A DNA stretch of 64,000 nt, from contig CP154954.1 of the NCBI GenBank assembly GCA_039621445.1, forward strand, positions 46,851,847 through 46,915,846, in the 5' to 3' direction. The DNA is from Euglena gracilis. Taxonomy: Eukaryota. The notes beneath the pieces were generated by a model. The model was not told the origin of the DNA, searched no databases, and was given only the letters and a program-made list of their open reading frames with translations. Shown piece by piece: positions 6,738 to 27,298 of the stretch (the first letter of the stretch is position 1; every line of letters begins with the position of its first letter). Both the position numbers and the translations under genes were made by a program.

Positions 6738-7340
6738 TTTTTCACAGAACAAAATTTCGTGGGAACAAACCACACCGACAAGATTGATCCGGCTCCACAG
6801 GCTCACCCCGCCCCGGTGGTGGGTGTCCCCCACCATGGGACTCCCCAAAATGAAAAAGACCGCCCCATACCCAATCCCAATCCCCCGCAGACGCATGCCG
6901 CTGCTCAGTCCCCCTCAGCGTGCACAGCAGAAAAAGAATCCCCCATTTCCTCACCTAGCCCCGCTCAAGAAAAGGCGATAAGCCCAAACCCCCAGCTCCC
7001 ATTCCCACTCCAGCTCATATTCCCCACCCTGTCCACCCCATCCCCACCCTCGTACCTGTCCCAGTCCCTGCGCACCACCCCAGCAGCCACGCCGTCCCCG
7101 GGGGGGTCCGCGGCGGCGTCCGCGGCGGCGTTCGCGCTGGTGCCGCTCCAGCTGCCGGAGTTTCGGCTGGAGTCCCCGCGGGACGCCACGCCGCTGCGGG
7201 CCCGCTTCCCGCTGCTGGCCGTGGCGGGGGCGCTGTTCTCCCCCACCACCACCCCCAGAGGGAGCCGCAAGGGGGATCAAAGGGTGTGGGGGGAACGAAC
7301 CCCCTTTTCTGAAGCCTCATCGTCCCACCAGCCGCTCAAG

Positions 7341-10146
7341 ATGCCAAGGATCCTGGAGGAGATGGACGAGGATGCGGCAGAGGTGGAGTATGACGTGGCA
7401 GAGGAGACGTACGAGCAGACCATCGAGATGTACGACGAGGCTGGGCCCGCAGGTGAGGGATACGAGGAATATATGGCCCCCGAGATGTACCAGGAGGAGA
7501 TGGGTGCCGGGGACGAAGTCCCGGTGCAAGACCAGCCCATGCAGGACGAGTATCCCGGGGTGTCGGAGGAGGTGGCGGTGTTGCTGACGAGCTGCATCGA
7601 CGCCGTGGGTGCCCAAGTCCGCGGCGTGGAGACGAGTCTCGGGCAGGTGGTGGCCCAGCTCGACCTCCTGGGCAACCGCACCCGGGAGATGTGGGATGAC
7701 TGGCCCACCGCGGCGCTGGAGGAGATGGACAAGGAGATCAAGGCCACGAAGGATGCGTCCGCGGCGGCCTATCGGCAAGTGGCGGAGGGGCAAGGCAAGG
7801 TCATCGCGCAGTTCATGGAGACTATCCAAGCCCAGCACGGACGGCTCGAGGGCCAAGTGGCGCAAGCCAAGGCGGCCGCCCGAAAGGCGGCGGATGAGGC
7901 GGCCCAAGCAATCGCCGCCGTGCAGGCTGAGCACCGATGCCGCGAGGCAGAGGTGCAAGGCCAGACGGCGATGGTGCGTGCCGGCCCCGGCGAAGGTGCG
8001 GCCCGGGTGGTGGACCTGGAAACGGCAGTGGAGGTGGCCCGTCTCCGGGGAACCATGGTGACGCGGGAGGAGCTCGCCACGGTGGTGCGGCAGATGGAGG
8101 AGGGAGGTGGACCAAGTGGTGACGGCGCTGTTCAGGGAGATACAGATGGCGAAGGACGAGATCAAGCAGTGGTCTGTCAAGATGTCCGGTCTCCGCCCGG
8201 CCGGGGGACCCCCGGTGTCCGCGGCGGCTCAGACCACGCCGCCAGTGTCCCAGCGCCAACCGTCGTCCTCCGCTGTCCAGCGTGCACCGTCCCATCCGCA
8301 GCCGTCCCGCACGCAAGTGCAGCAGTCCGCGCTGTCGTCGCATCCGTCTGCACCGGCATCGCGTCCCTCCAGCACCGCCGCCCCACCAACGCACCGAGCA
8401 GCGCAGCATCCGGCATCACACCCGCAAGCCGCGACCGTCGCCATGTCCAAGCCGTCAGCACCGGTTCCGGTGCCGGTGGCTGCTGCCCAGTCTGTCCGAG
8501 TCCAAGTCCGACCCGTCTCCAAAGTCTCCGTGCCCGTGTCAATCCAGCCGCTGGGTGCCGAAGGCACCGATCCGCAGTGTGCCGAAGGCACGGTGTACCA
8601 GCAAGCCATCCATCCCAACCCATCGCATGCCATGCATCAGACACCCGCGGTGGCGTTCGCCACCGGGATGTCTCCCCAGCCAGCCGTGCAGTCATCAGCC
8701 CACCCTGCCGGCGGGCCCCCGCCGGTGATGCAGTCCGCGGTGCCGGCTGCGACTGCGGCCACACCGGCGGACTCAGCCAACCCGCCCGCGTCGCGGCTCC
8801 GACCGGAGCTGCGGCTCGTGCGATCCCGCCCGGTACCGACGAATGCAGCACCGATGCTCCTCATGCGTGCGGGGGCGAGCGTGCCCGCACCAGTGAGGGG
8901 AATCGCCATCCGAGAAGTCCAAGCAACCACCCTGCCGCTGGGGGCTCCCCAGCTGCAGATCCTGCCACCGCACCTCCTGGATGCGCTCGGGGGGAGGCAT
9001 CCGGGCCGGTTCTCGGGTAACGCCGACGACTGGCCCCAATGGAGGCGGCGGTGGCTCCCCTACCTCCGCGAGGTGGAGGGGATGGTCCCCCTCCTCACCG
9101 AGGCGCAGCGGGTGGCGCTGCTGTGGAGTACGGTGGACGAGGCGACGGCGTTGCACATCGACCTGATGGTGGAGACCTACCCCGAGATGCCGTTCGAGGA
9201 GCTGTGGGCGAGGCTGGACCTGGAGCTGGGTGGAGACGACCGAGAAGCACTACGAAGGAAGCTCCGTCACCTCAAGGTGGTGACGCGGGGCAAGCTGACG
9301 GAGCGAGAGTGGCGGGAGTACTTCGCCAACGCCAAGGCGCTGGCGATGCAGATCGGGGACATGACGGACGTGGAGATAGCCCGCCTGGTGGTGGATCAGC
9401 TGGGCCAGCCATGGAGGAAGCAGCTGGCCCATGAGGAGGATCGGCGCCGTGACCACGCGGCGCTGGTCCTGGAAGGCCTACCGGAGGATGTGACGGTGGC
9501 GGAGGCGACGGAGATGGTGGTGGAGGAGACGGGTGTCGTGCCGAAGAAGGTGGATCGCCAAGGCAGAAGAATCAAGGTGGTCCCGGCGGATGATGACCAC
9601 CGGGCGGCCATCAAGGCGGTGTACGACCGGCAGAAGCTGTCTGGTGGAGCCATCGTCCGGGTGGCACCGGACACCGTGGAGTTCACCGCCACCCAAGTCA
9701 ACGACCTCATGGTGCGGTGGCTGAGGGTGGACCAGCGGGCCGCCACCATGGGCGACCCCGAGCCGGCCCACCGCAAACCGGCGGCACCCACAAGATGGCA
9801 GCGGGAAGTGGATGTCGAAGATGAAGAGGACGAGACCGACACCACGGCCAATCAAGGAGTCCAGGAGGAGTCCAACATCAAGGAAGTGAAGAAGGAAGCG
9901 GTGAAGAAAGAAAAGGAAGGAGAAGCGAAGAAGGTGGACGAGACCAAGGACTCCAACGATGCCCAAGGCTTGGCTGGCCGAGGCAAAGGCAACCAGCAGC
10001 CGTGGAATGAAGGATGGACCGGCAAAGGTGAAGGCAAGAGGAAAGATGGTGGAAAAGGCAAAGGCAAGGGTAAGGGGAAAGGCAAAGGCGGTGAGAAGGG
10101 TTCCGGCAAAGGAGAAGCGGCCGGGACGACATCGACGCAGCAATGA
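7341..10146 (+). CDS. gag: gag-like ORF of element B (one frameshift near 8100)
   Basis: ATG 7341 (MPRILEEM...), coiled coil, Pro/Ala linker, capsid-like region homologous to A gag, GKGKGK tail, TGA 10144-10146. Confidence 0.8.
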
Positions 10147-13100
10147 CGGGGCCGTCCAGGTGAGGGGAAGGGCCTGGACCGGCAGTCAACCCCCCAGCCG
10201 ACATCCGCACCAGGGACGAGGCTGGTAAGAGCGGTGGAGTATGAAGAAGAAGGATGGCGGCTGGTCCAAAGAAAGAGAAGAGGCAGGAAATCTCCAAAGG
10301 AAGGGGAGAGACCCTGCCTGCGGCAGATGTCGAAGGCGAAGCCGACACCATCGTCCCCATCAACATCACCGAGAGTGCCGAAGGCGAAGGTGACATCATC
10401 GTCCTCATCAACGCCGACGGCATCGGCAACGAAGACATCATCGACCTCATCAACGCCGGCGGCATCGGCAACGAAGACAGCATCGAGATCGAGTCTACCA
10501 AGATCTACGTCATCGCCATCAACAACACCGACAACATCATCACCGAAGGCATCACCAAGTATCCACAAGACACCACCACAAGAAAGACAAGCACCGGCGA
10601 AGGAGGTGAAGAAAGCACCGGCGAAGAAGGAGAAGACAGAGCCGGTGAAGAAGGCGGCGAAGGAAGAGAAGGAAAGATGGGCGCTGGACCTGTTCTCCGG
10701 AACGGGAAGTGTGAGAAGAGCGCTGGAGAAGATGGGCTTCAAGGTGATCAGCGTGGACTGGGATGAGAAGTGGAAGCCGGACATCGTGGCCGATGTGAGG
10801 AAGTGGAGGTACTGGGAGCAGTACGCTCCCGGCCATTTCGAGGTCATCGCGGCGTCCCCGCCCTGTACCGAGTACTCCGCAGCCCTCACCACCCGCAAGA
10901 CGAGGCTCCGCATGGCGGACGCGGTGGTGAAGGCCACGAGGGAGCTGGTGGAGTACTTGGCGCCTACGCGGTGGTGGATTGAAAACCCGAGGTTCGGCTT
11001 GCTGCGGTGGCGACGAGTCCTGCGCGGAGTGCGGTACGTGGATGTGGACTACTGCCGCTTCGCGGAGTACGGGTATCGCAAGCCAACCCGCTTCTGGGTC
11101 AGCGACGCGATGGCGAAGGAGCTGGACGACGTCATCTGTGGTGGAAAGTGCGGCAGTAGTGGAAGGACCAGATGGCGTACGACGACATCGGCTGCAGCTG
11201 GGAGGCAGTGGCGCCGAGCGCAGGTGCACAAGGGAGCAGGCCTACCGCATCCGGGAGGGGGTGGTGCGGTACCTGTGCCTGGGGGAAAGGGCACGGGAAG
11301 AAGTGGCGGTGGTGGAGGAGGCGAAGAAGGTGCGGAAGGTGGTGGTGCGGCCGTGGCAGCACCTCCCGAACCGGCCGTTTACGGTCGGCCGGATGGAGCA
11401 CCGTGGGTGGTGCTACCAGCTGCTGATGGATGTGGAGGTGGAGGCAGGCGGGATGAAGATCCAGGCGAAGGCCTTGATCGATACGGGGGCGCAGACCTCC
11501 CTCGTGAAGAAGGAGCTGTTCCCGGAGTCGGTGTTCCACGCGGCGGCGAGACCCTTGGTGCTACGCACGGTGAGTGGAGAGGCGCTACCCGGAGGACAAC
11601 GAGAAGCAGAGCTGAAGCTGTCGTTCGCGGCCCATACCGAAGACGAGGAGCGGAGACCGAGGACGTGGACGACGAAGGTGGTGGCGTACGACGGTTGCAT
11701 CAGCACGGATCTGATCCTGGGGTATCCGTGGCTGCGGGAGAACCGCCTGGATGTCCAGCCATGGCGCGACACCTTGCAGCTCCACGCGGACCCCAAGTGG
11801 ATCCTGAGGCGGCGTGGAGACGAAGAGAAGAAGGAGGAAGATGGCGATGAAGACGAAGACGAGCTGGACGGCTACCTCTCCACGGTGAAGAAGATGCGGC
11901 AGCTGACCACGGACGAGGCAGCAGTCCGAGAGGTGGTGATGATGCTGAAGGAGGCCGAAGAAGCGGCGAAGGCGGTGCGAGGGGTGGTGGAGACAGAAGG
12001 CGACGTCGACCATCCCTTGACGCGGCAGCTGCGGGACGAGATCGTCAACGAGTTCGAAGGCCGGGTGTTCCGAGAGCGGGTGTGGCCGTGTCCCCCGGCG
12101 CGGGGCACCCATGGGAAGGCGGTGCTGAGGCTGAAGCCGGGGGCAACTCCGGTGGTGGGCCGGATCATCAACCTCAAGGGCGAGCGGCTGGAGGCCCTGA
12201 GGGAGATGGAGCGGGAGTGCCTGGCGGACGGCAAGCTGGAGGCGGGGCGGGGGCCGTGGAGGGCGGCCGCCTTCCCCATCCGCAAGAAGTCGGGCAAGTG
12301 GAGGCTGGTGTGCGACTACAGCTTGACCAACAAGATGCTGCAGATGGACTCCTACCCCCTACCGCTGACGGAGGACATCGTGAGCGAGCAGGCGAAGTGC
12401 GAGATCTTCTCGACGGTGGACCTGCGGGACGCCTTCCACCAGGTGGCCATGGCGGAGGAAAGCCGACCCATCACCAACATCCACCTGCCCGGCGGCCTCT
12501 GGCAGTGGACCGTGGTGCCCCAGGGCATCAACTTCGGTCCGGCGCTGCTCCAGAGGGACATCGACGCGACCTGCCGCAACGTCTCCGCCCACACCCACCC
12601 CTACTTCGACGACATCCTGGTGAGCACGAGGCGGCTGCCGGGGTGGAGCGACGAGGAGCTGATCAGGCGGCACGCGGGGGATCTGCGCGAGACCCTGCGG
12701 GCGCTGGAGGCGGATCGGTGGGTGGCGGACAAGAAGAAGGCGCAGCTGTTCCGCAAGAGGGCGGAGTTCGTGGGGCACGTGCTGGTGGAGGGCAAGCGCG
12801 TGCCCGCGAGCGGCAAGCTGGTGGCGGTGCAGCGGTGGCAACCCCCGGCCAATGTGACGAGTTTGCGCACCTTTCTCGGCCTCTGCAATCATTATTCGGG
12901 GTATGTACGTATGTACTCGGAGCTGGCCGCCCCCCTGCAAGAGAAGCAGAAGCTGCCGCGGGATTTATCCCGGGCGGGCAGCAAGCACCCCATCGGGTGG
13001 TCCGCGGCCGAGCTGGAGGCGTTCGAGAAGCTGAAGGCAGCGCTGGTGGCGGACCTGGAGCTGTGGCACGTGGACATGAACAAGCCGTTCGTGTTGCGCA

Positions 13101-15800
13101 CGGACGCCTCCGATTATGCGGTGGGCGCCGTGCTGGAGCAGCTGCCGAAGGTGGAGGGCATCCCCTCGGTGGAGGAGCTCCTGAAGCCCGGGGCGACGGT
13201 GGCGGTGGGCTTCATGAGCAGGAAGCTGACGGAGGGGCAGCGGCTGCGGTGGGATACCCGCGACAAGGAGACGTACGCGGTGGTGAGCGCGCTGGACAAG
13301 TGGGGCGGCTACATCACCGGGCAGAAGGTCCTGGTCCTGACGGACCATCGGTCCCTGGAGAGCTGGTACAAGGAGCACGTCTCCCGGGGATCGGGACCGC
13401 AAGGTCGGCGGGCGAGGTGGCACTCCAAGCTGAACGAGCACATGGTGGAGGTGGTGTACGTGCCGGGGGAGAAGAACGAGGTGGGGGACGCGCTGTCGCG
13501 GTGGGCGTACCCGGCCAGCCAGGAGTACCGAGACGACGCCGAGGAGATGGAGCAGCAGATCCGAGAGGAGAAGGCCGCGGAGCGCAGCTGCCCGAAGGCA
13601 GTACACCCGGTGGATAAGGTGTGCCCCCTCCCAACCGCAAATGCGGCATCCCCATCGCCGCCAGCCGGGACACCGGCAGCCACAGCGGCATCGGCCGGGA
13701 CACCGGCATCCGAGGCGGCGCCCGCCGGGATTCCGGCAGCCGGAAGACCGGCAATCCGACCGCCGCCCCCTCCGAACCCCACCGCGCCGGCTGCGACTGC
13801 AGCACCGACCGTGCGAGCGCCCAGTGGGACAGCGCTGGCGTCGCCCGGGCAGCCCGAGCAGCCGCAGCACCCAGCGGTGTCCGCGCAGCCCAAGCAGCAG
13901 CAGCAGCCCGCCACACCACGCACGGTGCGGTTTTCCGTATGGCCAGCAGGGGCACCGGCAGCAGCACCCGCTGTGCGATCCCCGTCCGCCGAGCAAGCGT
14001 CGTCTCCGCCCGCGACTAGCGCACGCAGCATCCCACCACCGTCCGCAGCAATCGCCGTGACCACCCGAAGCCAGGCGGCCGCCATGCCGCCCAGTGCCGT
14101 CGTCCCGAAGAAGCCAGCCGAGGGAGCGGTGCCGTCGGCCGGCCCACCCAAGGTGGGGGGGCACCCCAGCCCTCCCGCCGTGCCGCCAGTGGCAGCCGCC
14201 GTGCCGCCTGTGGCAGCCGCCGTGCCGCCAGCTGCAGCCACCTCGGCCGCAGCCCCACAAGACGAGGACCAGGACCTGATGGCGATGGACTGGAGTGAGG
14301 CGTATGAGAAGTGCCCAACGTTCAAAGAGCCGTGGCAGGCCATCAAGCACGGCCGGCCATGGCCCACCGGCTACCGGAAGGAGGCAGGCAAGCTGGTGAA
14401 AGATTCCGTCTGGTGCGTGCCGGATGCCCTGACCGAGCGGGCAATCCGAGAGCAGCACCGGGCGTCGGGGCACGTCGGTGGTGAGCGCCTCCTCGATGAG
14501 GCCAGTCGGAAATTCCAGTTTGCGGTGCCCTCCCGAGCACGCGATGCTGGCGGGCAAGATTCTGGCTGTGTGCGAGTTCTGCCAGGCGTCAGAGCACCCC
14601 CACCAACCCCTCCGGCTCCGCATCACGCCCACTCCAGTGCCGCCCCATGTGATGTGTTCGGTGAGCGTGGATCTGTTCCAGATGCCGGAGGTGGAGGTGG
14701 AGGGCGGCAGGCTGGTGAATGTGTTCGCAGCATGCATCGATCGGCACTCCGGCTGGGCGATCGCGACCGTGCACCACACCCGCGGGCTAACGGCGGAGGC
14801 AGTGGCGAAGGCGATGTATGAGCAGTGGGCGCAGTTCGGTGTGCCAAGCGTCATCACGTCGGACCGGGCCCCCACTTCGTGGGGGCCCGGTGGAGGGCAA
14901 TGTGCGCAATACTGGGGGTGCGCCATGCCTTCTCCCAAGCATACCACCACGAGGGCAACGCCCGTGCGGAGGTCCTCGGCGCGCAGATCCAGAAGCGGCT
15001 GAGGAAGATGAAGGCGGCGGAGGGCGTGGCGTGGCCGGAGGCGCTGCCGCGGGCCCTGCGGACCCTGCACGACAGTGCTGGGCCCAGCGGCCTGAGCCCC
15101 TTCCAGGTGCTCTTCGGCCGCGAGCGGTGGTACGGCGGGGTGCCGTACCAGCCGCCCACGCGGGCCGAGGACGCGGTGGCCTTCTTCGAGCGCATGCAGG
15201 ACATCGATCATCGTGTCGCGAAGATCTTGAACGAGGAGCACGCCAAGACAGCCGAGACGGTCAACAAGCGGAGGAAGGAGCTGCCGGAGCTGGAGATTAA
15301 CGACAAGGTCTGGTACCTCCGCCCGCGCACCCGCACCGGCGAGAAGCTGGAGACGTAATGGATCGGGCCGTGTGTGGTGGCAGAGCGCACCAGTGAGCAC
15401 ACGTACGTGCTCCAGATGGAGGATGGCCGGAAGCAGGTGGCCCACCGATCCCAAATCAAGAGCTACCGCCACGATCCAGCCCTCATGGGGCCACCGCTCC
15501 GCCTCTTCCACTTCCGCCAATCCAGGCCGGACGAGGGTTCCCGGCTGGACGAGTGGGAGGTGGAGGCGGTGGTCACCCACCGGCGCGATGCCAACGGCGA
15601 CCTCGAGTTCCTCGTCAAGTGGCTGGGGTACGAGGAGAAGACGTGGGAGCCGCTGCGGCACTTCTTCCACCGGTACGCCTCCCCGATCGTGTCGTACTTC
15701 GTCGAACACGACATCAAGGAGGACATCATGAAGTACCTCTCGAGGTTCCCGGAGGAAGCCCACATCGCCATCTGCCACGCCGTGGAGATCGAGAAGGAGA
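10147..15800 (+). pseudogene. pol: pol of element B: C5-MTase, aspartic protease, RT, RNase H, integrase, chromodomain
   Basis: IDTGA (~11480), YFDD (12602), RTDASDYAVGAVL, HHCC plus SVDLF/TSD integrase motifs, EWEVEAVVTHRR...FLVKWLGY...TWEP (~15551); frameshifts ~11160, ~14540, ~14870 and a stop near 15357. Confidence 0.9.
10678..11290 (+). other. C5-cytosine DNA methyltransferase domain in Pol of B
   Basis: Motif I ALDLFSGTG, motif IV SPPC (catalytic Cys 10864-10866), motif VI ENP (10981), motif VIII-like RKPTRFW. Confidence 0.9.
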
Positions 15801-16859
15801 AGGAGAAGGAGTTTGGGCTGTCCTGGGAGGAGCCAAGAGAGGAGTGGATGTGGCAGGACACCGAGGACGGAGATGTATGTCGAGAAGGTGATGATTCTGG
15901 AGACGATGATGAAGGTGATGGAGGAGACGAAGGAGATCGAGACCAAGAAGACGGAGGAGACGCTGGCCCGGCGGGTCCCCAACAAGCGGCCCACCCCAGG
16001 TACCCGGTCAGGGTCCACCGGCAGCCCGCGAGCGGCGAGCGCCCCGCTTCCGTGCGATCCGCGTCTGCGAGGGATGCGCTCTCCCGCGCTTCCCTTGCCC
16101 CTGCCCCACCGTCCACCACCCCATCACTCCCCATGTCCCACGCGTACCCACCCCGCAGTCCAGGCGTACCTCAGAGACCCGGTCCCCGAGTCTCCTCTGC
16201 CCCCACGGGTAGAGGTCGCCGCCCCCGCGTGTCGACCCGCAGGGACGCCCCAGCTCGGGATCCCCCGCTCCCACCAGGGGCCCCCGTTCCCGTGCACCCC
16301 CATGACCCGTCCCTGCGGCGAGGGGGCACCACCACCGGAGGCGTGCCCCTGCATGGCCACGGTGCGACCCGGCCCTTCCTTCACAACAAGGAGGCCACCC
16401 CTGCCCCCTGCCCTCACCCCATGGGGAAATGGAAAAGGCCTGGCGTCAAACTGGGATTTTCTCCATGGTGGTCGTGTTCCAGTTCATCTTTCTGTTCCTT
16501 CCCCTCGCCTTCGACGCTCAGGACAGGCGGCTGGCAGCGCGCGCGCAGGAGCTGAGCAGATGATCATGCTGGCTGTCGTCGTGAGGATATGCTGTGACGT
16601 CGGCGGCAGCTGGCTCACCCCCTACTGACCTGATGGATACTGTGGAGGCTCTCACCCACCAACCCAACCTCTTACACTGGTGTGCCACCCCTCCCATCTC
16701 TTCCCCAACCGAAGCTGAGTCACGGTGAGCCCGGCCGAGGCCGAGCCAGGAGAAAGGAGACCGGAGAGAGCCCAGAGAGGAGAGAGAGAGAGGAGAGGAG
16801 AGGAGAGCGACGAAGCACGGGGGCGAAAGCCCCGGGGAGAGGCGAGCAAAGAAGGACCA

Positions 16860-17605
16860 GGGGACCCAAAGGGGGGGGGGGACCCAACCGACCCCGGGGG
16901 CAAAAAGGGGGCCCAGAGGGGACCCAAGGAAGACCAAAGGACCCGGACCAGGGGAACCCAAGAGCGGCCAAGGGGGGGGGCCGCCCAAGACCACCCGGGG
17001 GGGGGGGGGCGCCCGGCCAGGAGGCCGCCCAGACCCCGGGGGGGGGGGGGGTACCCAAGAGCGGCCCAGGGGGGCCGCCCACGACCCCAGGGGGGGGAGG
17101 CGCCGAAAAAGCAGCCCAGGGGGGCCGCCCAGACCCGGGGGGGGGGGGGGGGCGCCGAAAAGCGGCCCAGGGGGGCCGCCCAGACCCCAGGCAGGGAGGG
17201 GGCGCCAAAGAAGCCCAGGGGGGCCGCCCAGACCCCAGGGGGGGGGGGGGGGCCGAAGAACGGCCCGGGGGGGCCGCCCGAGACCGCCCGGGGGGGGGGG
17301 GGGCACGCACGGCCCAGGGGGGCGGGCAAAAAAAAAAGCTGCCAGGGGGCCGCACAGACCGACCCAGGGGGGGGGACCCAAGAGCGGCCCAGGGGGGGGC
17401 CGCCCAGGACCCCAGGGGGGGGGGGCCAAGAAACGCGGCCCAGGGGGGCCGCCCAGACCCCAGGGGGGGGGGGGGGCGCCGAAGAACGGCCCAGGGGGGC
17501 CGCCCAAGACCACCCGGGGGGGGGGGGGGCACGCACGGCCCAGGGGGGCCGGCAAAAAAAAAAGGGCGGCAAGGGGGATCGCCAGCCCCAAAGGGGGGGG
17601 GGGCA
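16860..17605 (+). repeat. G-run-rich ~60-bp tandem array in the 3' region of B
   Basis: About a dozen degenerate units of GCGGCCCAGG(G)nCCGCCCAGACCCC(G)n. Confidence 0.85.
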
Positions 17606-17907
17606 ACCGAACCCTGACAAGAGCACCCACCAAGGAGAGCCAAGGAGAGCCAGAGCCAAAGCCCGAGCCCAGCCTATTCCTGAGGCCAGCCCGCAAGGCC
17701 GGACGACGTCAGCAGCGACGCCCACCGAACGCCTGCGGAGCACGGCCAGGGATTGGCTGGCGTCCACCCCCACCCGGACCACAGGAGCCCGCCCGCAGCC
17801 GGCACGCCAGGCAGCGGCGCAACGAAGGACCGGGAAGACCCGGCCAGGCTCCTGTGGCAGGGGGGCGAGAGAGGCAGCGGCCAGGCCCGGCAGCCGGAGG
17901 CAAGGCC

Positions 17908-17919
17908 GAGGAAGGGGAG
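17908..17919 (+). promoter_or_regulatory. Polypurine tract of B
   Basis: GAGGAAGGGGAG abutting the 3' LTR. Confidence 0.85.
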
Positions 17920-18562
17920 AGTTGGCGGACCGGCCGCTGCACCTTCCGTTGCCACTATTACAGCCTGCTGTTGTATATACTGAACCACTGCGCTAATTCA
18001 GCATCAAAATAGCGCAAACCGCTCTCTAACTGTCCTATGTATTTCACTGCAGGCTCCCTCTCTTTACCTATGGTTTCAATTCAAGATTGTGCCTGCTGAA
18101 TCAAGACCAAGGTCAAATTATATCAATTTTCAAGGAATTTCAAGGGAATTCAAAGAAAGGCGCTGGAGCGAAGAAAGTGCAAAAGTTCAAGAAAGTCAAA
18201 AAAACCCAAGGGCGGAGCAAGCAAAACATTACAAAAGATTGGATATCTGCTGGCACAGGAAGAGCAGTACAAGCAGAAAAGGTGTTGGTGCTGGGGTACA
18301 AGAAGCCTAGGGGAGGGCAACCAGGCCTTTTCCTAAACCCCCCCCACTGCCGGAAGGGACGCCAAGCCGGACTCCCCCCCTCCAGCCACTCCACAAAAGG
18401 AGGGCCTTCGGTCCCCGGGAAAAAATCCTACGTGGGAAGGGGAGTATCCCGAACCTACCCCTCTCCCCAGAGCCCATCGCGCCTACCCCCCACCCCGCCG
18501 GTACCCCCTCACGGACCCCCGGGAGTGAAGGCTGGGCAAAAAACAACAACATTCGGGAAACT
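17920..18562 (+). repeat. 3' LTR of element B
   Basis: Direct repeat of 6085-6726. Confidence 0.95.
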
Positions 18563-18983
18563 CAACGGTGGACCCCCTGTTTGCCTTTAGGGATGCCGGG
18601 GTAGAAAATTTCAGGGGTTTATGACCCCGGGCATTGGAAACCCCAACCCAGCTTCTAAACCCGACCCTTCCACCCGTAACCTCCAATCCACCAACCATCT
18701 TACCACAAACGAAATGACGGGGAGCGGAGCTTGGAGTGAAGTCAAATGGGCCGGCCGAGCCCAGCGTGATGGAGTGAGGGAGCGAGAAGCCAAGACCCCC
18801 CGGAGCCAAGGAGAGCAGGCACGGCCCGGAGGCGGGCGAAGGAGGTTTGAGGGGGAAGCGAATCCCCTCCCATTCCTTTCGCGTGCACATCCCTCCCCAT
18901 TCCACATGCCAAGCCAAAACTATTATGATTGTTTGAATGGGAATAGGCGGGCCTCAAACAAAAAGTGGGCCAGGAAATTTCCC

Positions 18984-19590: not shown

Positions 19591-19619
19591 TTAAGGAGGA
19601 AAATTTTTCGTTTAAGTGT

Positions 19620-20012
19620 GAGGATTATGCCGTTCGAAACTCATTTGTGCAAATGATTGAGGAGAATTTTCAAAGGAGGGCCGAGGTGAATTGTTTTGCT
19701 TCTACCCAAAATTCTCAGTGCACATCATATTTGACCGAGAAGGAAAATGCTTTGGCGGTACCATGGGGAGGGGGGGGTACGGTTTGGTTGAACCCCCCCT
19801 GGACATTGTGGCCAAAGGTGGCAAAGAAATTGCAAAAGGACCCTTGTGATGCCATTTGCATCTTACCTGATTGGAGCAAAGGGTGGGTAAGGGAACTTGT
19901 TCGGAAGGCATCAAAAAAGTTGTATTTTCCACCCGGAACCAAACTTTTTGAGGTGGATGGGAAACCAATGGGGGGTGTGAGGTGGGGAGTTTGGACCTTG
20001 TTGATAGAGGGT
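19620..20012 (+). other. N6-adenine DNA methyltransferase-like domain (phage Dam / DIRS-type) in Pol of A
   Basis: NCFASTQNSQC (D/NxFAS..N), NALAVPW, WLNPPW catalytic motif (19791-19802), ICILPDW...W. Confidence 0.82.
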
Positions 20013-23000
20013 AATAAGGCCCCCGCCAACACTAGCAACCCCAAGAGAACAAAGGTGGTACATTTGAAATCGCGGATGGTTAAAAAGAGATACCCACCCA
20101 CAGGGATTGAGAAATTTTCGAAGGACCGACAACTTTTGATTCGGACAAGGGTTGTTTTAGGGAACGGGGAGGAACAAAATATGGACATTTTGGTGGACAC
20201 CGGTGCCGAGGCTAACCTCATAAGACAAGGGTTAGTGAGTGAGCACCTAATGTATTCGGCCGAACACCCCTTAAGGTTTGAAACCGCTAACGGTCAAGCC
20301 TTGAGTGGTGGGGGGAGGTGCACTAAGGTGGTGATGAAGTTGCAAGGGGAGGTGAGTGATAACACCCCACCCACAGATTTTGAGTTCGATGTGGAATTTT
20401 ATGAAGCCAATATCAAAGTAGACGCAATTTTATCATACCCATGGCTTGTATGCACAAAAATCGGAATTTTTCCACATCACCGTGTAGTGGAGGAACCCGA
20501 ATTGACATTTTTATTCGGTGTGAGAGATCATAGGAGAAAACGGCAAGGAAAAGTCCCTTGCACCCTACCCCAAGGGGGGGGGGTGACGAATTTGGAAAAG
20601 TTTGGTTTTCTCCTTCCGATGGAGGGTTTTGATCAAAGGGGACAAACCTTGGACGAGCACTCGCTCAAAATTTTGGGCCAGAATTTAGAGATGGCAAATG
20701 AAAACCCCCTACCTATTCGCAAAATGATCATTGCAAGGGAGGGGGAGGGGAATAATGAAACGGAATCCGAAGAGGAAGAGAGAATAAGGAAGCTAAGAGA
20801 GGAAATTTTTGGAAGGTATGATGGAACCGTGTTTCGGTCTAAGGTACAACCCGACCCACCCGTAAGAGGACCATATGGTTATGCATTCATACCTTTGCAA
20901 GAAGGAGCGCGGCCTACCCGACAAAAACCATTTTTCATGCACGGGGAACGAAAAGAAGCTTTGGAAAAAATCACTCAAGATTGGATCGATATGAAATTCA
21001 TCGCGCCAGCCACAACAAAAAATTCAGAATGGCTCTCACAAACATTCCCCGTACCCAAAAAGTCAGCCGATTTTCCTTGGAGGGGGGTTGTTGACATGAG
21101 GGGACCCAACAGCCAATCCCGTAGGTGCAACTACCCTCTTCCGAAAATCGAAGACATCCTGGTGAAGCATGGCGCAAACCAAATGTTCTCCATTTTGGAT
21201 TTAAAACAAGCCTTTCACCAACAGCCGCTTCACCCGGATAGTAGGCCTATAACTTGCTGCTTCACACCAAATGATCTTTACCAATGGAGGGTGAATGTAA
21301 TGGGGTTAACTAACGCCTCACAACAATTGCAACAAATGATGGATGACCGTTTAGCACCCGTAAGGGATATTGCTACCCCATACATTGATGACATTTTGGT
21401 AGGGACCACCGTCTGGGAGGGGGAGGATCTCCTCGAGGCACACAAAAGGGATTTGTGTAGGGTTTTGGATTTACTCGCCGAGGAAAGTTTTGTAGTGGAC
21501 CCCAAAAAAGCGGAATTATTCATCAAGGAAGTGGAATTTTGTGGCCAGATTTTGGGGCATCGGCCCCCGGCAAATTACGCGCCATTGAAAAATGGGAGGT
21601 TCCTACAACCATAACGGCCTTAAGGGCTTTCCTGGGCTTCACAAATTATTACAACACCTACATACACATGTATGCCCAAGTTGCGGCACCTTTGCAAGAT
21701 AAGTTGAAGGTATCTCGGGAGGAAGGCAAGAAAGGGAGCAAAAAATGGGTTGAATTCGGGGAGGTTGAACACAAAGCATTTGAGGAGTTAAAGAAACGGT
21801 TGTGTTCCGGATTAATTCTTCAAAGGGTAGACCCCGATAAACCCTTTGCTTTGAGAGTTGATGCGAGTGGGTATGCCGTAAGAGCAACTTTAGAACAACT
21901 CAAAGAAGGAAACGGTACGCCCACACCCCAAGATATTTCGGACAAAAAAACGGTGCCTGTTGCTTTTATGTCCCGAAAACTCACCGAGGGGCAAAGAAAA
22001 TGGACCCCCCGGGAATTGGAGACATATGCCATAATTTTGGCACTCCAAAAATGGGAAAGTTGGATTGGTCTCCAACCCATTTTGGTGTTGACCGATCACC
22101 AAAGTTTGGAGGCATGGGCAAAAGAAGTGCTCGACACCCCAAGTGGACCGGCGGGGAGGAGGGCACGATGGCACCAAATTTTCTCAAAATACGATTTGAC
22201 AGTGGGGTATATTCCGGGGAAGGAAAACACCATTGCCGACATTTTAAGTCGGTGGGCATACCCCGCTTCGCAAGCCCTAAGGGACATTAGTAAACATGGT
22301 TCGGCCGAAGATAAGAGGGAAATGGAGGAGCTCATAAGAGAGGAAAGGGAAGATGAGAAAAATTGCTTGTTGGTCAAAGTAAAAAATCAGCCTAACGCTC
22401 GTAATTTGTGGATAAGGGGAGTGGTAACCCGCAGCGGAAAAGAGGTGGCACCCAATTTTGTGGATGATGCATCAGGGAGAGGTACCGAGAGTGTAGAAGG
22501 TCCGGGAGGAATAAACACCACCAAAGACGCTCACTCACAAGGGCCTAGGGAATTTGGTTCGAAAAAGGGTAAGAGGAGAGTTACCTTTTGGGATGGAGTG
22601 GACCCTGCGGGAAATTTGGTGACCAACCCAAAACTTCCGACTAATGAGTTACCGAGGGGGGGAACTGGAGGGGGTGGGGCCCCACCAACTCCAAGTGCAA
22701 CCCCTAAGCTAACAAAATCAGTTTGGGAGAGAGATTGGGTGGTTGCGTATACCGAATGCCCCACTTGGAAGGAAAATTGGCTTGCAACTCAAAACGACGG
22801 TGAGTGGCCAAAGGGTGTGAAAGTTCACAAGGACCGAATGTTTTTTGAGGAGAAATTGTGTGTCCCACTTTCTTTTCAAGAATTCATTGTGCAAGAGGTT
22901 CATGAATTCTTGGGACATGTTGGTCCGGAAAAAGTGTGGAATTTCATCATTTTGCGGTACGCATGGGCTGATGAAAAAAGGGCACGTGTTTTCAATGAAA

Positions 23001-25464
23001 GTTGTTCCAAAAATTGTGTCACGTGCCAAGCAAGTTCAAGGGGGGAGACTTTGAAGGGACCCATAGATTCAACACTCATTCCACCGGCACCCATGGTGAG
23101 TGTGGCCTTAGATCTTTTCAAAATGCCATTGGTAAAGTATGAGGGGGAAAATTACAATACCATGGCGGTATGTGTTGACCGGCACTCCGGTTGGATCGTG
23201 GCCATACCTTTTTTAGAAAAAGGATTAACGGGTGCAAAATTGGCAAAAGCAATGCTCAAACATTGGAGGCTTTTTGGGATTCCTTCTATCATTTTAGCGA
23301 CCAAGGGAGTCACTTCGTGAACACATGGTGGCAAACCATGTGCTCGTTTTTAGGAATTCGGCAAGCTTTTTCTCAAGCCTACCACCACCAAGCCAACGGG
23401 CGGGTGGAAAGGGCGGGTCAACAAGTCATGGAAATTTTGAGGAAACTATTTGTGGACGGAAAAATGAATTGGGTTGAGGCTTTACCCCAAGCTTTGGATA
23501 GGATTCATGATGTGAAGGGGGAGGGCGGTTTTAGCCCATACCAAATTATGACCGGTAGGGAACGTCCCCTTGGGGGGATACCTTACCAAGCTTCCAAAGA
23601 GTGTGAGGATGCACAATAATTTTTTCATCGAATGAAGCTAATTGATGAAACGGTGGCAAAGGTTTTAAACCACACCCATGAGGTCAAAGCTAAAAGGATT
23701 AACCAAGGTCGAAGAGAAATGGAACCATTAAAAATTGGAACCCATGTGTGGTACAAACGACCCGAGGGTTCGGGTGAAAAATTAAACTCGAGGTGGATTG
23801 GTCCCGGTATTGTCAAAGCTCGGGAGGGAGAGAGGAGTTATGTTGTGGAAACCAAACCGGGTGTGCAAATTAAGACACACCGAAGTTTTCTCAAGGAGTA
23901 TAGGGAACCACCGGTTTTGGCAAAGGGGTTCCTTTGTATTTTTTCAAACGGACGGAAAAAGAGGAGGAGGCAATGCCCGATGAATGGGAGGTTGAGAAAA
24001 TTTTGGCCCACCGTAGGAAGGGGGATTCGTGGGAATTTCTCACCAAGTGGGTTGGTTATGAGGAGGGGGAAGAAACCTGGGAACCCATTGTAAATTTCAT
24101 TCATCGGTTTAGCCATGAGTTGGTTCGGTATTGTGCACACAAAAATTTGAAGGTGAATTTAATGGGGGAGCTTCAAAAATCTTTGTGAGCCAATTTTATT
24201 GAGGCTCAATTTTGCTTTGCTTTTGGATTTTATTTGACGGTGAGCTCAATTTTTAGAAGCTCTGGGAGGTGGAACGGGGCCAAGTGCCTTGCGGCACCGG
24301 GGGGCCTTGATTTCACGCTCCTATCCTCCATTTTGTATGTGCACGTTTCCTTTGGGTGCGGGCACATACACGGACGCGTCATTTTGCTTTGCGTGCACAC
24401 ATGTGCACACGTTATTTTGCTTGGCTTGCCCGCGTCACTTTGTTTTGCTTGTTCTCGTTGCTTTGTATTGGCCTTTTTGTCACAGGAGAGAAGCGGGAAG
24501 CTCCAGCACGCCGGGAGCCCCGACTTTGTAAATATTTGTAAATATTCACCCACGCATAGCTGGCGTTTTTTTTGTTTTTTTTAAAAAAAACGTTTTTTTT
24601 TGTTTTTTATTAAAAAAAACGGGCAAAAAAAACGGCAAAAAAAACAAAGGGGAAAATGATGGTCCAAATTTTGCCTTTGATCGCAAGGGTGAACCAATCT
24701 CAGCTCAAATGACTTGAAAACCAATACTTTTGGTTGTCTTCAACAAGAATGGTCAAAATAGGGCATTTTTTGCCATTTTGGGATGTTTCAACTTGAAACA
24801 TCCCAAATTTGGTATCTTTCTCTGACCGAGGATGGGTAAAAAAAGCTAAAATTAAAGGCAAAAAATTTTTTTGCCCTGGACCCTCAATGGCGTTTTTTTT
24901 GTTTTTTTTAAAAAAAACATGTTTTTTTTTAAAAAAACGTGTTTTTTTTGACTTCGTTTTAAACGAAGTGCCAGCTATGCACCCACGCGTGGGCATTCCT
25001 TCAAATGTTTGGGAGGAAGGAAGGAAAGGGGTTGGGGGTCCCCTCGGCAACAACCATCGCTATCTCCGACGACGCTACATTCGCCACCTCCATCATCTCT
25101 ACTTACACCAACACCAACATCACCACCCCGACAACACCGACCTCTACCAACATCGACGCCTCTACGGAAAGGGTGGTTGGCGGCGGTACGGAGGATTGCT
25201 CGTTTCACCCCTACCGCTACCTTTACATCAACGATTCGCACCTCATTTATAACCGTTACTCCTCCCTTCCCCCCACGCATCCCTACCCACACGCACGCGC
25301 ATACCCCCCCGGCAGTTGGAGAGTCCCGAGAGCAAAAATGTAAGTAGGGAGAGTGTGAGATTGGCCATAGCCCCTGTGCTATCGGTTGGACACTCGCAAG
25401 AATTCTTTTCGGTTTTTTCCCCCCAATTTTTTGAAGCCCTTCAAGGAGATGGAGTTGTGAGCAC

Positions 25465-25720
25465 ACTCTCCCCCGGGGGGGGGAAGGCCGATTTTTTCAA
25501 CTCCCCCGGAGGGGGGAGGGTGAATTTTTATTTTCCCCCGGGGGGGGGAGGCCGATTTTTTCAACTCCCCCGGAGGGGGGGGAGGGTGAATTTTTATTTT
25601 CCCCCCGGAGGGGGGGGAGCGAATTTTTATTCCCCCCCCGGGGGGGGAGGGCGAATTTTTAACCCCCCGGAAGAAAGGTTGCGGGCAATTTTTTCAATAC
25701 CCCCAAAAGGGGGGGGCAAG
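25465..25720. repeat. C-run/G-run tandem array in the 3' region of A
   Basis: Six or more units of TCCCCC(G)nAGG...ATTTTT. Confidence 0.75.
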
Positions 25721-26246
25721 CAATTTTACCCTTGGGAAAGGAGGAGCGGCCATGTATTTTCCCCCGAGTCAAAGGGGGGGGGGGCGATGTGCCATTCTCC
25801 TTGGCAAGAATTTCCATTGGACCGAAGGAATCTTTTGTTTGTGAGACCAATTCCTTTTTGTTCACCGGGTGAGTTGAGAGGTTTTGTAATTCTTTTCCTT
25901 TGCAATCAAGTAGGACGCTTCTTGGTTTCAAAGGATGATTCACTCTCACATTTTTCACCAGAAATTGTTAAGTAGGTTCAAGTTGGATCTTCCCTCATGT
26001 ATTTTCAAGTTATGTTTTTTGGAGAGGGATACACCATTCCAAGGGGGGGGGACATTTTCTCCCCACAACGATGACAAAAAAGGGAGGAAATGCTGCCCGT
26101 TTCATTCGCACATGGTCGCAAGAGCAACTAGAAGAGGGGGGAAAGGTACCAAGGATGTGAAGAAAGTCCCCCTTGCCCATCTTTCCATTGGGAACGGACT
26201 TCGGATTTAGACTTGAAGGCAATTGAAGGAGGAGTTGGACGCATGC

Positions 26247-26251
<5 letters not shown>

Positions 26252-26316
<65 letters not shown>
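26252..26316. repeat. (CA)n microsatellite
   Basis: Direct. Confidence 0.95.
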
Positions 26317-26322
<6 letters not shown>

Positions 26323-26565
26323 CTTTTTTTTGGGTGGCATCATGAGGCTTTTATGTGCTTGATTGGAAGATGGTGAACACATTGTATGGGTTGGCATACA
26401 ATGTAAGTTCTGAATTTTTGAGAGGGGCATAGGCCTGTTTGTTTATTCGGTTCCTCAATTCTCTCCAAAGGGTGTTCTTCGTGTTTCATCTTCGACCCCC
26501 CCCCCGCTTCCGAAAAATGCGACTTTTTGCAATTTTGATTTTTTTCGGAGTCCGACTAAAGTCGC

Positions 26566-26576
26566 AAGGGAGGGGG
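26566..26576 (+). promoter_or_regulatory. Polypurine tract of A
   Basis: AAGGGAGGGGG abutting the 3' LTR. Confidence 0.85.
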
Positions 26577-27298
26577 TGTAGACCGTTGGGGGTCGTCAAC
26601 GGTCTAAGGGGGGGGGAAGCACCCAAAGGACCATTTTTCAAAGTCGCGCACAACATCGCTAAGTGCGCGCTTAAATTCACTTTTTGGAAACCTTCCAATT
26701 CATTCTCGAGTTAGAACAAAAACCCCAAAGGTAGCTAATTATCCCCATTTCACAGACATTTGTGGGTTTTTTTTATTATTGACCATTATCCGAAGTTGAA
26801 GTTTTGGAAGCGGAATTCAAGTCATCAAGGTTTCTTGGATATTTGACAACTATTTGAATTCTACGGTGGAAGTGGATTGATTCAATTGTGACAGGGGACT
26901 TTCCAACTGCCGGACGCCCTCCGGCCACCTTTTTGACCCATTCCGGTGTGTGTGGACTTCCGGACATCGGTGTTGGTGTGTGGCATTCTTTGTGCTATTT
27001 GCATTTTTTTGGGTTGGCAAACCAAAGTTCATACATTTCGAAGGATAGCACCAAAGGTTTTCAATGGGAGTTTGGGGAATTTTTGAAATGTTGTTTCCGA
27101 TCCTACGCGGGGAGTCCCAGCCGGGAAGGAACCCGGGGGAAACACCCGAAAATGACTTGAGCCCACCATTTTTGGGAAAAAAACCGGTTCCGGCGGGGGC
27201 ACCCGCACCCCCCCACGGGCTGGTGGCTGGGGGGACGGACCCCGGCGAGGGGGGGCCTGGCCCGGCCCCGGCACGGGAGGGGGGTGCGGCCCTGAACA
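26577..27298 (+). repeat. 3' LTR of element A
   Basis: Direct repeat of 1475-2195. Confidence 0.95.

Follow-up and report, generated by a model that had tools for sequence, protein, structure and literature searches.

An LTR retrotransposon of Euglena gracilis, here termed element A, is almost devoid of the trinucleotides CAG and CTG over most of its length, and this deficit is confirmed as real, motif-specific, and independent of codon usage and base composition. The element lies in a 64,000-nucleotide stretch of contig CP154954.1 (the window, to which all coordinates refer), with all features described on the forward strand. Selection against CAG and CTG, caused by avoidance of the RNA-processing code of the host, is the explanation tentatively preferred here, although it is held at somewhat less than even confidence. 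We infer that selection rather than mutation made the deficit, with splicing as the selective agent. CWG is used below as shorthand for CAG plus CTG, and O/E denotes an observed/expected ratio.

Organisation of elements A and B

Element A is a 13-kb Ty3/gypsy chromovirus, and the region of interest spans its pol, 3' untranslated region (UTR) and LTR. The 5' LTR (1475–2195) has TG…CA ends and is CWG-poor, with an O/E of 0.33 up to 1815 and 0.45 thereafter; the 3' LTR (26577–27298) is CWG-poor as far as ~27117, and the two are 99.0% identical across 723 columns. A 4-bp target-site duplication, CTCT, is found on either side (1471–1474 and 27299–27302). Directly 3' of the 5' LTR is a primer-binding-site-like TGG… sequence, TGGTTAGCAGAGG, and the polypurine tract, AAGGGAGGGGG, occupies 26566–26576, directly 5' of the 3' LTR. 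The non-coding 3' region (24204–26576, CWG O/E 0.20) includes this tract, a 32-nt tandem repeat (25468–25716) and a (CA)35 array (26246–26316).

The gag region (2194–6084), assigned from its open reading frames (ORFs), comprises a repeat-rich N-terminal extension (2194–3426), a coiled-coil and a capsid-like part, with a CWG O/E of 1.7–3.1. The EukProt protein EG_transcript_5069 (P0041) aligns with 2189–3988 at 82–95%, and a second protein (P0039) with 3548–4921 at 94%, so the N-terminal extension is coding in an E. gracilis transcript. Overall, gag and DAM fragments of A match EukProt ‘EG_transcript’ proteins at 94–95%.

Pol (18591–24203) was delineated using Pfam and tblastn. It begins with a putative C5-methyltransferase (C5-MTase; ~18980–19580) carrying the motifs DLFSG, PC and ENP, but with GKN in motif I, where the consensus of its homologues is GxG; PF00145 scores 19.8 bits, under its cut-off of 22, and homologues carry precomputed PF00145. 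A Dam-like N6-MTase follows at 19647–19916 (PF05869 at 38.7 bits, cut-off 28.1), with the catalytic Asn-Pro-Pro triplet present as NPPW at 19791 (ORF residue 401). Downstream are a protease (~20166–20330, protease models below Pfam cut-offs), a reverse transcriptase (RT; 21111–21551, PF00078 (RVT_1), 60 bits), an RNase H (21758–22192, PF17917 (RT_RNaseH), 81 bits), an integrase zinc domain (22863–23035, Integrase_H2C2 at 23.2 bits, below cut-off), and an integrase core with chromodomain (23296–24203), the last probable from 63–70% identity to protein P0002. Over pol as a whole, P0002 aligns at 62–70% identity (tblastn), and PF00665 and PF00385 are among its precomputed Pfam annotations. The nearest relatives with a DAM are P0001–P0003, at 60–62% identity. 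The order protease, RT, RNase H and integrase, with a C-terminal chromodomain, places A among the chromoviruses. In this copy pol contains open stretches of 885 and 582 codons, and its frame changes near 21560, 23300 and 23930.

The gag of A is interrupted by element B (6085–18562), a nested 12.5-kb LTR retrotransposon with LTRs at 6085–6726 and 17920–18562 and the target-site duplication CAAC at 6081–6084 and 18563–18566; beyond B the gag frame resumes, with a stop at 18622. B is a GC-rich relative of A (interior 67% GC) with a normal CWG O/E of 1.1, and carries a C5-MTase, protease, RT, RNase H, integrase and chromodomain, without a DAM. Its C5-MTase is homologous to that of A, as is its gag (24% over 220 amino acids, E 4e-14). 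Both elements are very high-copy. Copies of A with an empty site are indicated by a 6084>18573 joint in DNA run X1 (depth 3511, shorter side 20) and in run X16 (shorter side 27). Within the window, blastn found no further A-like fragment, an Rfam scan gave no matches, and Pfam detected no families in ten other ORFs. A viral contig scan with the RNase H–integrase ORF found no relative.

A motif-specific deficit of CAG and CTG

Between 19900 and 26880 there are 38 CWG, compared with 161.0±9.9 in 300 dinucleotide-preserving shuffles (minimum 134; z -12.4). Both triplets are affected, as the sequence-only reading had proposed: 21 CAG and 17 CTG occur where the Markov-1 model expects 101 and 60 (O/E 0.21 and 0.28), and the respective values in the background (27201–60000) are 1.23 and 1.12. 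The counts made by eye in that earlier reading were accurate, with 33 CWG (23 CAG and 10 CTG) in 3961–4560 of gag, two in 21601–22200, one in 22801–23400 and two in 25801–26400, as was its expectation of about 19 per 600 bp at uniform composition (exactly 18.75). Its dinucleotide observations also hold, CpG being retained in pol (34.8/kb vs 23.0/kb in gag) and gag being TpA-poor (21.8/kb vs 37.7/kb in pol).

The deficit is wider than 19900–26880, beginning at ~18.6 kb (~14 CWG per kb in 18763–19900) and ending at ~27.1 kb, and the 5' LTR up to 1815 is likewise depleted (O/E 0.33). Pol from 19901 onward has an O/E of 0.19, and CWG is absent from 22968 to 24077, a gap of 1109 bp that is unsurpassed in the window. 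The gag region (2196–6084), conversely, is enriched, with 205 CWG vs 127.3±8.5 (z +9.2). The claim that depletion reaches non-coding DNA stands for ~2.4 kb that are truly non-coding (14 CWG vs 53.7±5.4 in 24204–26575, z -7.4), but most of the 3' DNA that the earlier reading took for non-coding, as far as 24203, encodes the integrase and chromodomain with shifted frames. The transition is gradual, with CWG density falling from 47 to 15, 14, and then 5 per kb, without a sharp break, and one island of seven CWG occurs in 251 bp at 21007–21257.

Specificity is apparent from symmetrised k-mers, in which CAG/CTG is 5.4-fold under background (log2 -2.43) and no other trinucleotide falls below -0.69, and all eight CWG-containing 4-mers are reduced 4–9 fold. 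Neither GATC nor ApT shows a regional pattern along the region. Simple codon bias had been considered unlikely, and this judgement is upheld by the depletion of the non-coding 3' part and by synonymous codon shuffling of pol, which yields 86.4±6.5 CWG vs the 38 observed (none of 1000 shuffles being as low as this; z -7.5). Gag codon usage applied to pol would give 160. Glutamine is encoded by CAA and CAG in a ratio of 65:6 in pol and of 37:41 in gag, and GAG, AAG, AGG and GTG are not avoided in pol. Third-position frequencies of A, C, G and T are nearly identical in gag (.28/.15/.31/.26) and pol (.27/.18/.29/.25). The same shuffle is neutral for B pol (z -0.8) and for a neighbouring RT ORF (z +1.0), whose CWG content is normal; in gag, cross-codon CWG are slightly in excess in the N-terminal half (71 vs 62.1±2.8) and neutral in the C-terminal half.

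With z at -12.4 after dinucleotide correction and -7.5 after codon correction, the probability is practically negligible that composition, codon usage, chance, or faulty assembly of modified motifs produced the deficit, and nothing was found in favour of such an artefact. Among the eight best-supported of the differences listed against public contigs for 18763–21400, one restores a CWG (19366) and one removes one (20679). Since only one of the eight restores a CWG, the assembly does not systematically miscall the motif.

Mutational decay and recombination as unlikely causes

A mutational footprint, in which CWG cytosines were methylated by the C5-MTase of A or by the host and subsequently deaminated, was among the causes first proposed, and is now very improbable. 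In its favour, no symmetric trinucleotide is more enriched in the depleted domain than CTA/TAG (12.45 vs 8.51 per kb), and CAA and TTG are the main pol codons for glutamine and leucine. However, the expected products gain only ~12/kb (~4 for TAG/CTA and ~8 for CAA/TTG), under half of the CWG loss of ~30/kb, and the leucine share lost by CTG is taken up by CTC to much the same extent as by TTG or CTA. Cross-codon NCW-G sites, which lie beyond synonymous C>T or G>A removal, are depleted too. Differences in run X1 over a 20-kb stretch including B show no deamination bias among copies (178 C>T/G>A vs 197 T>C/A>G). Default methylation in the host is reported to be at CG (10.64898/2026.05.21.726589), yet CpG itself is not depleted, with an O/E of 0.68 in the region compared with 0.56 in the background. 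The long open stretches of pol also speak against mutational decay, as does B, which has a homologous DNMT and normal CWG. An APOBEC-like minus-strand gradient was separately considered and rejected, as the loss affects CAG and CTG alike, the plus strand is not G-poor, and U3 is depleted too.

A second early proposal was a gag/pol chimera, with gag recombined onto a pol–LTR module that was already CWG-poor. Modular exchange has been described among Euglena DAM retroelements (10.64898/2026.05.21.726589), the dinucleotide signature distance is larger between gag and pol (127) than between pol and the 3' UTR (85), and the seven-CWG island within pol would also be consistent with recombination. 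Against this, the third-position composition of gag and pol is nearly identical and CWG density declines gradually; the gag of A is homologous to that of B, as expected if gag and pol co-evolve, and copies without B share the same gag–pol junction. The proposal, which would in any case merely shift the question to why the pol module is depleted, is accordingly given little credence.

A candidate spliced RNA lacking gag

Evidence that RNA of A meets the host splicing machinery comes from a search for joints in Logan contigs (likeness set at 90), in which contig depth was not taken as a rank of expression. A joint at 1813>18761, which slides by 2, was found in all three runs labelled ‘RNA?’ (the label being a software guess), at depths of 391, 799 and 375, each time in a single contig whose shorter side measures 29–32 letters. 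It was found in none of the contigs of the single DNA run compared, although contigs can drop rare forms. The candidate nonconventional (NC) intron defined by this joint (1816–18762; 4465 nt in copies without B) would excise the 3' part of the LTR, the entire gag and the first 196 nt past B, leaving the LTR fused to the beginning of pol.

The experimentally defined NC code reported for Euglena is 5'-N3CDG…CH'GN5-6/R (the slash marking the splice site) in which the middle bases of the two triplets are complementary, with a CAG-CTG consensus whose CAG, close to the 5' end, pairs with the CTG close to the 3' end (Nomura et al. 2025, PMC12501133). In A it is matched in the 1816–18762 register alone, as CTC-CGG…CCG-AGCCC/A, a CGG-CCG variant with a purine after the intron. 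Of 300000 pairs drawn at random from the window, 938 (0.3%) match the code by chance, as do 0.9% in the GC-rich B. The duplex between the intron ends has a predicted energy of -40.9 kcal/mol vs -36.5±4.9 for shuffles, a value reached by 91 of 500 shuffles. Inspection by eye does show a 6-bp CCGGCC/GGCCGG helix at the candidate intron ends.

Within the LTR, CAG/A at 1652–1655 appears to serve as a splice acceptor for spliced-leader (SL) addition and for one other upstream exon. One contig of run X18 consists of adapter, TTTTCG, and sequence from 1655, resembling an SL tag, the 3' end of the E. gracilis SL being reported as TATTTTTTTTCG (PMC4778363); contigs of run X16 have a different upstream exon joined at the same site. 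Past the candidate intron, the first in-frame pol ATG (18906–18908) is followed by 902 open codons, and residue 8 of P0002 aligns at 18969; judging from this alignment, the ATG would start a gag-less pol protein where its homologue begins. RNA contig depth falls after ~19400. A further joint specific to RNA contigs, 20748>20853, was rejected as a splice, as it misfits the NC code and sits in a variable acidic linker; it is read as subfamily divergence.

Proposed avoidance of host RNA-processing signals

Two observations favour splicing as the selective agent. Firstly, CAG/CTG, one of 32 reverse-complement trinucleotide classes, coincides with a known host signal: besides the CAG-CTG consensus, the swapped CTG-CAG pair is reported to be functional, and NC introns to make up 71.8% of introns in E. 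agilis (PMC12501133), and CAG is reported as the 3' splice-site consensus of E. gracilis for cis introns and, in SL trans-splicing, for outrons (PMC11170887). Secondly, the RNA of A appears to encounter this machinery, given that the 1816/18763 joint fits the code and that an SL-like tag occurs at 1655. An AT-rich RNA of 8 kb at normal CWG density would present many cryptic splice sites, and purifying selection may have stripped CAG and CTG from the 5' LTR, pol, 3' UTR and 3' LTR while sparing gag. The purged part would then be what remains in the processed RNA, and the unpurged part, from leader to gag, would sit in the NC-type intron, whose excision would give a gag-less pol RNA. By a heuristic of our own, 14 candidate CAG/CTG-type cryptic NC introns occur in 7.8 kb of pol and 3' UTR and 1368 in 36.7 kb of background, a low count that is a consequence of the depletion itself and adds no separate support.

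Several findings weigh against avoidance of splicing signals. B is related, high-copy and lies inside A, yet its CWG O/E is 1.1, and the RT ORF neighbouring A is also undepleted. The same is true of six related metagenome retroelement contigs lacking a DAM (L001–L005 and L007; O/E 0.76–1.52), which came from a scan with patterns chosen in the C5-MTase domain; among the 80 loci kept, six also had a retroelement protease/RT and none a DAM. CWG avoidance is clearly not obligatory, since host exons, with a transcriptome GC content reported as 63%, are taken not to be CWG-free. Gag is unpurged although the genomic RNA also needs an intact gag, and the functional variants CGG/CCG are not depleted (27.7/kb in pol vs 25.5/kb in background). 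In addition, CWG changes gradually, with no sharp coincidence with the intron borders, and the pairing of intron ends is no better than that of shuffles. Of the causes suggested by the sequence-only reading, avoidance of host splicing signals nonetheless emerges as the best, on the basis of the published CAG…CTG code, while the normal CWG content of B, the relatives and gag counts against it.

A possible DNA-level code for methyltransferases

The selected motif could instead act in DNA, CAG/CTG being the target of the Dam-like N6-MTase or the C5-MTase of A, or of a host CWG reader or modifier. This is unlikely on present evidence. Sites would be retained in the first 4 kb past the LTR and purged elsewhere, either restricting modification to a gene-like 5' domain or allowing the body to evade a CWG-directed host system. 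The strand symmetry of the loss (21 CAG, 17 CTG) is as expected of a double-stranded site, and there is a 5'-to-3' polarity, from the slight cross-codon excess in the N-terminal half of gag, through its neutral C-terminal half, to strong depletion. Among the elements compared, the one with a DAM (A) is depleted and none of the seven without (B, L001–L005 and L007). The 5' domain is CpG-poor as well (23/kb vs 35/kb). Furthermore, 6mA downstream of transcription start sites is reported only at genes without promoter CpG methylation, and DAM-LTRs are reported to carry more 6mA (10.64898/2026.05.21.726589).

Conversely, the site would be arbitrary under a DNA-level code, leaving the match to the host splice code (one class in 32) unexplained, and the association with a DAM has n=1. 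Eukaryotic DAMs are reported to have shown no activity in E. coli, and 6mA was scored at ApT (10.64898/2026.05.21.726589). No characterised relative informs specificity: the DAM region of A gave chance matches only against PDB sequences and, against NCBIfam, a generic phage N6A-methyltransferase model alone, below its cut-off.

In a more specific form, which we regard as improbable, the CAG/CTG distribution would act in cis as an address for the DNA methyltransferases that A itself encodes, with sites packed into the first 4 kb past the LTR and erased elsewhere. The Dam-like enzyme or C5-MTase would write a 5'-restricted, gene-like mark on new copies, and this mark would imitate the rare ‘6mA-positive, CpG-unmethylated’ promoter class of the host.

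Relation to known systems and implications

LTR elements of E. gracilis that combine a DNMT, a DAM and a chromodomain have been described as ‘EpiLTR’ (Fernandez-Moreno et al., bioRxiv 10.64898/2026.05.21.726589), and A has the same domain set, with a putative C5-MTase, an NPP Dam-like MTase and a chromovirus pol, and apparently belongs to the same host. The main text of that preprint does not mention CAG, CHG, CWG, trinucleotides, depletion or GC content; the present analysis adds the avoidance of the motif, its contrast between gag and pol, and the candidate spliced RNA without gag. With respect to Euglena NC introns, both purged triplets are the core of the consensus, and the 1816/18763 joint of A fits the CGG-CCG variant. 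The introns reported in PMC12501133 lie in host genes, and the synthetic ones are 50 bp, whereas the candidate in A is ~4.5 kb; the passages of that paper on CAG/CTG do not mention exons or transposons that avoid the code. In the literature, no report was found of NC splicing shaping the sequence of a transposon.

CpG is suppressed in HIV-1, through ZAP, and L1 bodies are CpG-poor while the L1 5' UTR is CpG-rich. As in A, a short motif is rare in coding and non-coding parts and a 5' domain is exempt; A differs in that its motif is a trinucleotide pair, and host CpG methylation leaves no comparable mark in it. Phages avoid restriction sites, and plants methylate CHG/CWG through CMT3; A has in common with them that a short site is lost from both strands alike and that its context is CWG, but the deamination signature is absent in A. 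No reader of CAG/CTG is known to us besides the splicing machinery, and we know of no CWG-specific methyltransferase, nuclease or reader in euglenids.

If the motif proved to be tied to the Dam-like or C5-MTase, it would provide the first clue to the target of the DAMs of eukaryotic retrotransposons, and a cis-encoded address would mean that a transposon has had its primary sequence moulded to the specificity of one of its own enzymes. If avoidance of splicing signals is correct, A would apparently be the first case of Euglena NC splicing visibly shaping a transposon, and would offer a natural 8-kb ‘code-free’ sequence beside a 4-kb code-rich one, apt for tests of recognition. Under either explanation the CWG pattern is a cheap genome-wide marker for the A lineage. 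Should splicing be the agent, the AT-rich, CWG-free A and the GC-rich B nested within it would suggest different ways of coping with the same host.

CAG/CTG depletion in element A

In element A, a 13-kb Ty3/gypsy chromovirus LTR retrotransposon, the deficit of CAG and CTG (together CWG) is real, extreme and specific. CAG + CTG had earlier been counted by eye in four 600-bp segments, and every count proved exact on recount; the proposed loss of both trinucleotides in 19900–26880 also holds, with 21 CAG and 17 CTG against Markov-1 expectations of 101 and 60. Background DNA (27201–60000) has Markov-1 observed/expected ratios of 1.23 for CAG and 1.12 for CTG, and 300 dinucleotide-preserving shuffles of 19900–26880 contained 161.0 ± 9.9 CWG (minimum 134). 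The probability that the pattern is an artefact is negligible. The limits first given to the low-CWG domain were, however, too narrow, the true domain being larger: CWG per kb is ~47 in gag, 15 directly after element B (a GC-rich relative nested in A), 14 in 18763–19900 and ~5 in 19901–26575, while the 3′ LTR is CWG-poor to ~27117 and the 5′ LTR up to 1815. The longest CWG-free stretch of the window is 1109 bp, at 22968–24077. Within the otherwise purged pol there is an island of normal density (7 CAG/CTG in 251 bp, 21007–21257), just upstream of the RT domain and overlapping its start.

The pattern belongs to the nucleic acid, and neither protein nor base composition explains it, as follows from k-mer specificity, codon shuffles, controls and the non-coding tail. 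Among strand-symmetric k-mers, CAG/CTG is 5.4-fold under the window background, the next trinucleotide being 1.6-fold under, and all eight CWG-containing 4-mers are reduced 4–9 fold. The Gln codons CAA:CAG stand at 65:6 in pol and 37:41 in gag, and CTG makes up 3 of 53 four-fold Leu codons in pol and 15 of 33 in gag; GAG, AAG, AGG and GTG are in free use in pol, and third-position base composition is alike in gag and pol. Shuffling of synonymous codons in pol, with the protein and its own codon counts fixed, gave 86.4 ± 6.5 CWG against 38 observed, with 38 or fewer in none of 1000 shuffles. Under the same test neither B pol (z −0.8) nor the neighbouring RT ORF (z +1.0) departed from expectation, and gag had a slight excess over its N-terminal half (71 CWG, with 62.1 ± 2.8 expected). 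Depletion does reach non-coding DNA, as the sequence-only reading had claimed, the 2.4-kb tail having 14 CWG against 53.7 ± 5.4; this, with the codon-shuffle deficit in pol, upholds its view that simple codon bias is unlikely. The observed/expected difference persists after dinucleotide and codon correction.

Structure of elements A and B

The layout is explained by two nested LTR retrotransposons. The LTRs of A (1475–2195 and 26577–27298) are 99.0% identical, with TG…CA ends and CTCT on both flanks; the 5′ LTR is followed by a TGG… site that resembles a primer-binding site, and ahead of the 3′ LTR lies a polypurine tract. Its pol (18591–24203) has C5-methyltransferase-like (C5-MTase), Dam-like N6-methyltransferase (DAM), protease, RT, RNase H and integrase regions and a putative chromodomain, assigned by homology to the protein P0002; the DAM region matches PF05869 above cut-off and has an NPPW motif. 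Fragments of gag and DAM match EukProt EG_transcript_5069 and EG_transcript_20987 at 94–95%; together with the spliced-leader tag described below, this assigns the window to Euglena gracilis or a very near relative. Elements of this kind, E. gracilis LTR elements with DNMT (C5-MTase), DAM and chromodomain, have recently been described as EpiLTRs (preprint 10.64898/2026.05.21.726589, May 2026); a text search of the main text of that preprint found no mention of CAG/CTG depletion, and the literature searched and read does not speak of avoidance of this motif.

The window copy has three frame changes in pol, a stop at 5084 (G in all other contigs compared) and a stop at 18588 that reads TGG in one contig lacking B, all private defects of this copy. 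In an E. gracilis transcript (P0041) the segment 2196–2784 is protein-coding, not a non-coding leader. With B taken out of 6067–18624, pol of the window copy lies in frame −1 relative to gag, with a short overlap; one public B-less contig has an extra C in the run 18573–18577, with which gag and pol would be in frame. The A family may use either a frameshift or a fused gag-pol. In 2196–4750, TTTTCAG recurs eight times and its reverse complement CTGAAAA six times, accompanied by CAGATTTT and CAGCCAG. Over its first 600 bp this part codes for repeated F-T/A-D/S-x-V-S-E-E-F-like peptides, and can fold into hairpins in whose stems CAG is paired to CTG. The 3′ untranslated part has 32-nt tandem units on C5-G9 runs (25468–25716) and a (CA)35 repeat (26246–26316).

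Element B (6085–18562) sits in the 3′ end of A gag, with LTRs ~98% identical, AGTT…AACT ends and CAAC on both flanks. Since public DNA contigs carry the empty site (joint 6084>18573), A also occurs in B-less copies, and its gag-pol junction belongs to the family as such. B encodes a C5-MTase and a chromovirus pol, with the DAM segment absent. The composition of the two relatives is far apart: the B interior (6727–17919) has 67% GC, and 90% G/C in third codon positions, against 46% GC for A. For E. gracilis a transcriptome of 63% GC is reported, so that B resembles the host in this respect and A differs from it. LTR divergence is higher in B (~2.0%, 13 differences in 643) than in A (1.0%, 7 in 723), although B must be the later insertion. 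This excess may be a chance effect, or may come from LTR gene conversion in A or from the composite A[B] unit having been re-mobilised or duplicated. The 3′ untranslated part of B has ~50-nt G-rich tandem units (16975–17564). RNA contig depth is ~300 over 9405–10738 and near 0 over the remainder of B, the loose ends being AAGGGCAAGGGC-type repeats; a Lys/Gly-rich low-complexity stretch here is probably common to abundant host transcripts. Adjoining A, an 879-aa open frame on the reverse strand (28175–30814), with an RT domain, a weak leucine-rich-repeat match and normal CAG/CTG, is probably a third, unrelated retroelement.

Mutation, chimerism or selection

Since the predictions of deamination fail, the CWG pattern is taken to reflect selection in the A lineage against this motif. 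Decay by CWG methylation and deamination, the footprint first proposed, would leave TWG and CWA, yet such products are up by only ~12/kb against ~30/kb CWG lost; CTC took over the Leu codon share given up by CTG to the same degree as TTG or CTA, and NCW|G sites, beyond the reach of synonymous transitions, number 21 against ~55 expected. Differences between the window and X1, a public DNA run, have no C>T or G>A bias (178 places, vs 197 with T>C or A>G, counted through all 20 kb with B included). CpG is indeed retained in the depleted domain, at an observed/expected ratio of 0.68 over a background of 0.56, despite CG methylation being the reported host default (preprint 10.64898/2026.05.21.726589), and B carries a homologous C5-MTase yet its CWG is unaffected. 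Such decay is thus a most improbable source of the deficit. Joining of gag and pol from two differently composed lineages had also been suggested, but is unlikely: third-position composition is identical in the two, CWG density declines gradually, and the gag genes of A and B are homologous.

Splicing signals and the RNA of element A

Trinucleotides fall into 32 reverse-complement classes, CAG/CTG being one, and besides splicing we know of no system in the Euglena host that uses exactly this pair. The deficit is ascribed, tentatively, to selection against host CAG/CTG RNA-processing signals. The code of Euglena nonconventional (NC) introns is given as 5′-N3CDG…CH′GN5-6|R, with the consensus CAG-CTG; a single substitution in either triplet kills splicing, swapped CTG-CAG is functional, and 71.8% of E. 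agilis introns are NC (PMC12501133). The 3′ splice-site consensus of E. gracilis cis introns and outrons is CAG (PMC11170887).

A joint 1813>18761 (2-base slide) occurs in contigs of three runs labelled ‘RNA?’ (a presumed label) from three studies, with one contig per run, short sides and a likeness threshold of 90, and in no contig of the one DNA run compared. Set in the register 1816..18762, the excluded stretch is CTC-CGG…CCG-AGCCC with an A after it, a CGG-CCG variant of the NC code, itself among the variants tested (PMC12501133); random pairs fit the code at 0.3% in the window and 0.9% in GC-rich B. After this candidate intron (4465 nt without B), the first in-frame ATG (18906) heads 902 open codons, at the point that corresponds to the N-terminus of homologue P0002. 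In one contig from an ‘RNA?’ run, adapter plus TTTTCG is joined at CAG|A (1655), and this tag matches the end of the E. gracilis spliced leader, TATTTTTTTTCG (PMC4778363). The RNA of A thus appears to be handled by the host NC-splicing and CAG splice-site machineries. RNA contigs running from 1816 into gag have, upstream of 1812–1814, 105–169 letters foreign to this LTR; these letters are C-rich, alike in the ‘RNA?’ runs X15 and X18, and matter for the transcript start. They could come from a subfamily whose U3 differs, or from a further upstream exon.

Avoidance of host splicing signals, as raised by the sequence-only reading, stands in part: the code match and RNA joint favour it, but B and other related elements are undepleted, gag is exempt, and CGG and CCG, for which no avoidance was found, are kept. 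CWG depletion was not found in B, six related metagenome retroelements or the neighbouring RT ORF, so avoidance is not required in this host. Genomic RNA must also preserve gag, a misfit to selection on splicing signals, as are a CWG density change that is not sharp at the candidate intron borders and intron ends whose pairing is not above shuffles. A is the sole DAM-bearer among eight elements compared at the DNA level, and CAG/CTG reaches high density in the CpG-poor first 4 kb alone; a DNA-level code, tied to A's own methyltransferases or a host CWG reader, is for these reasons a live if rather doubtful rival. The probability beyond these five readings is unexplained. The processed RNA that carries the 1813>18761 joint would keep the CWG-poor part of A and the CWG-rich part would be removed, as the candidate intron would take in all of gag.
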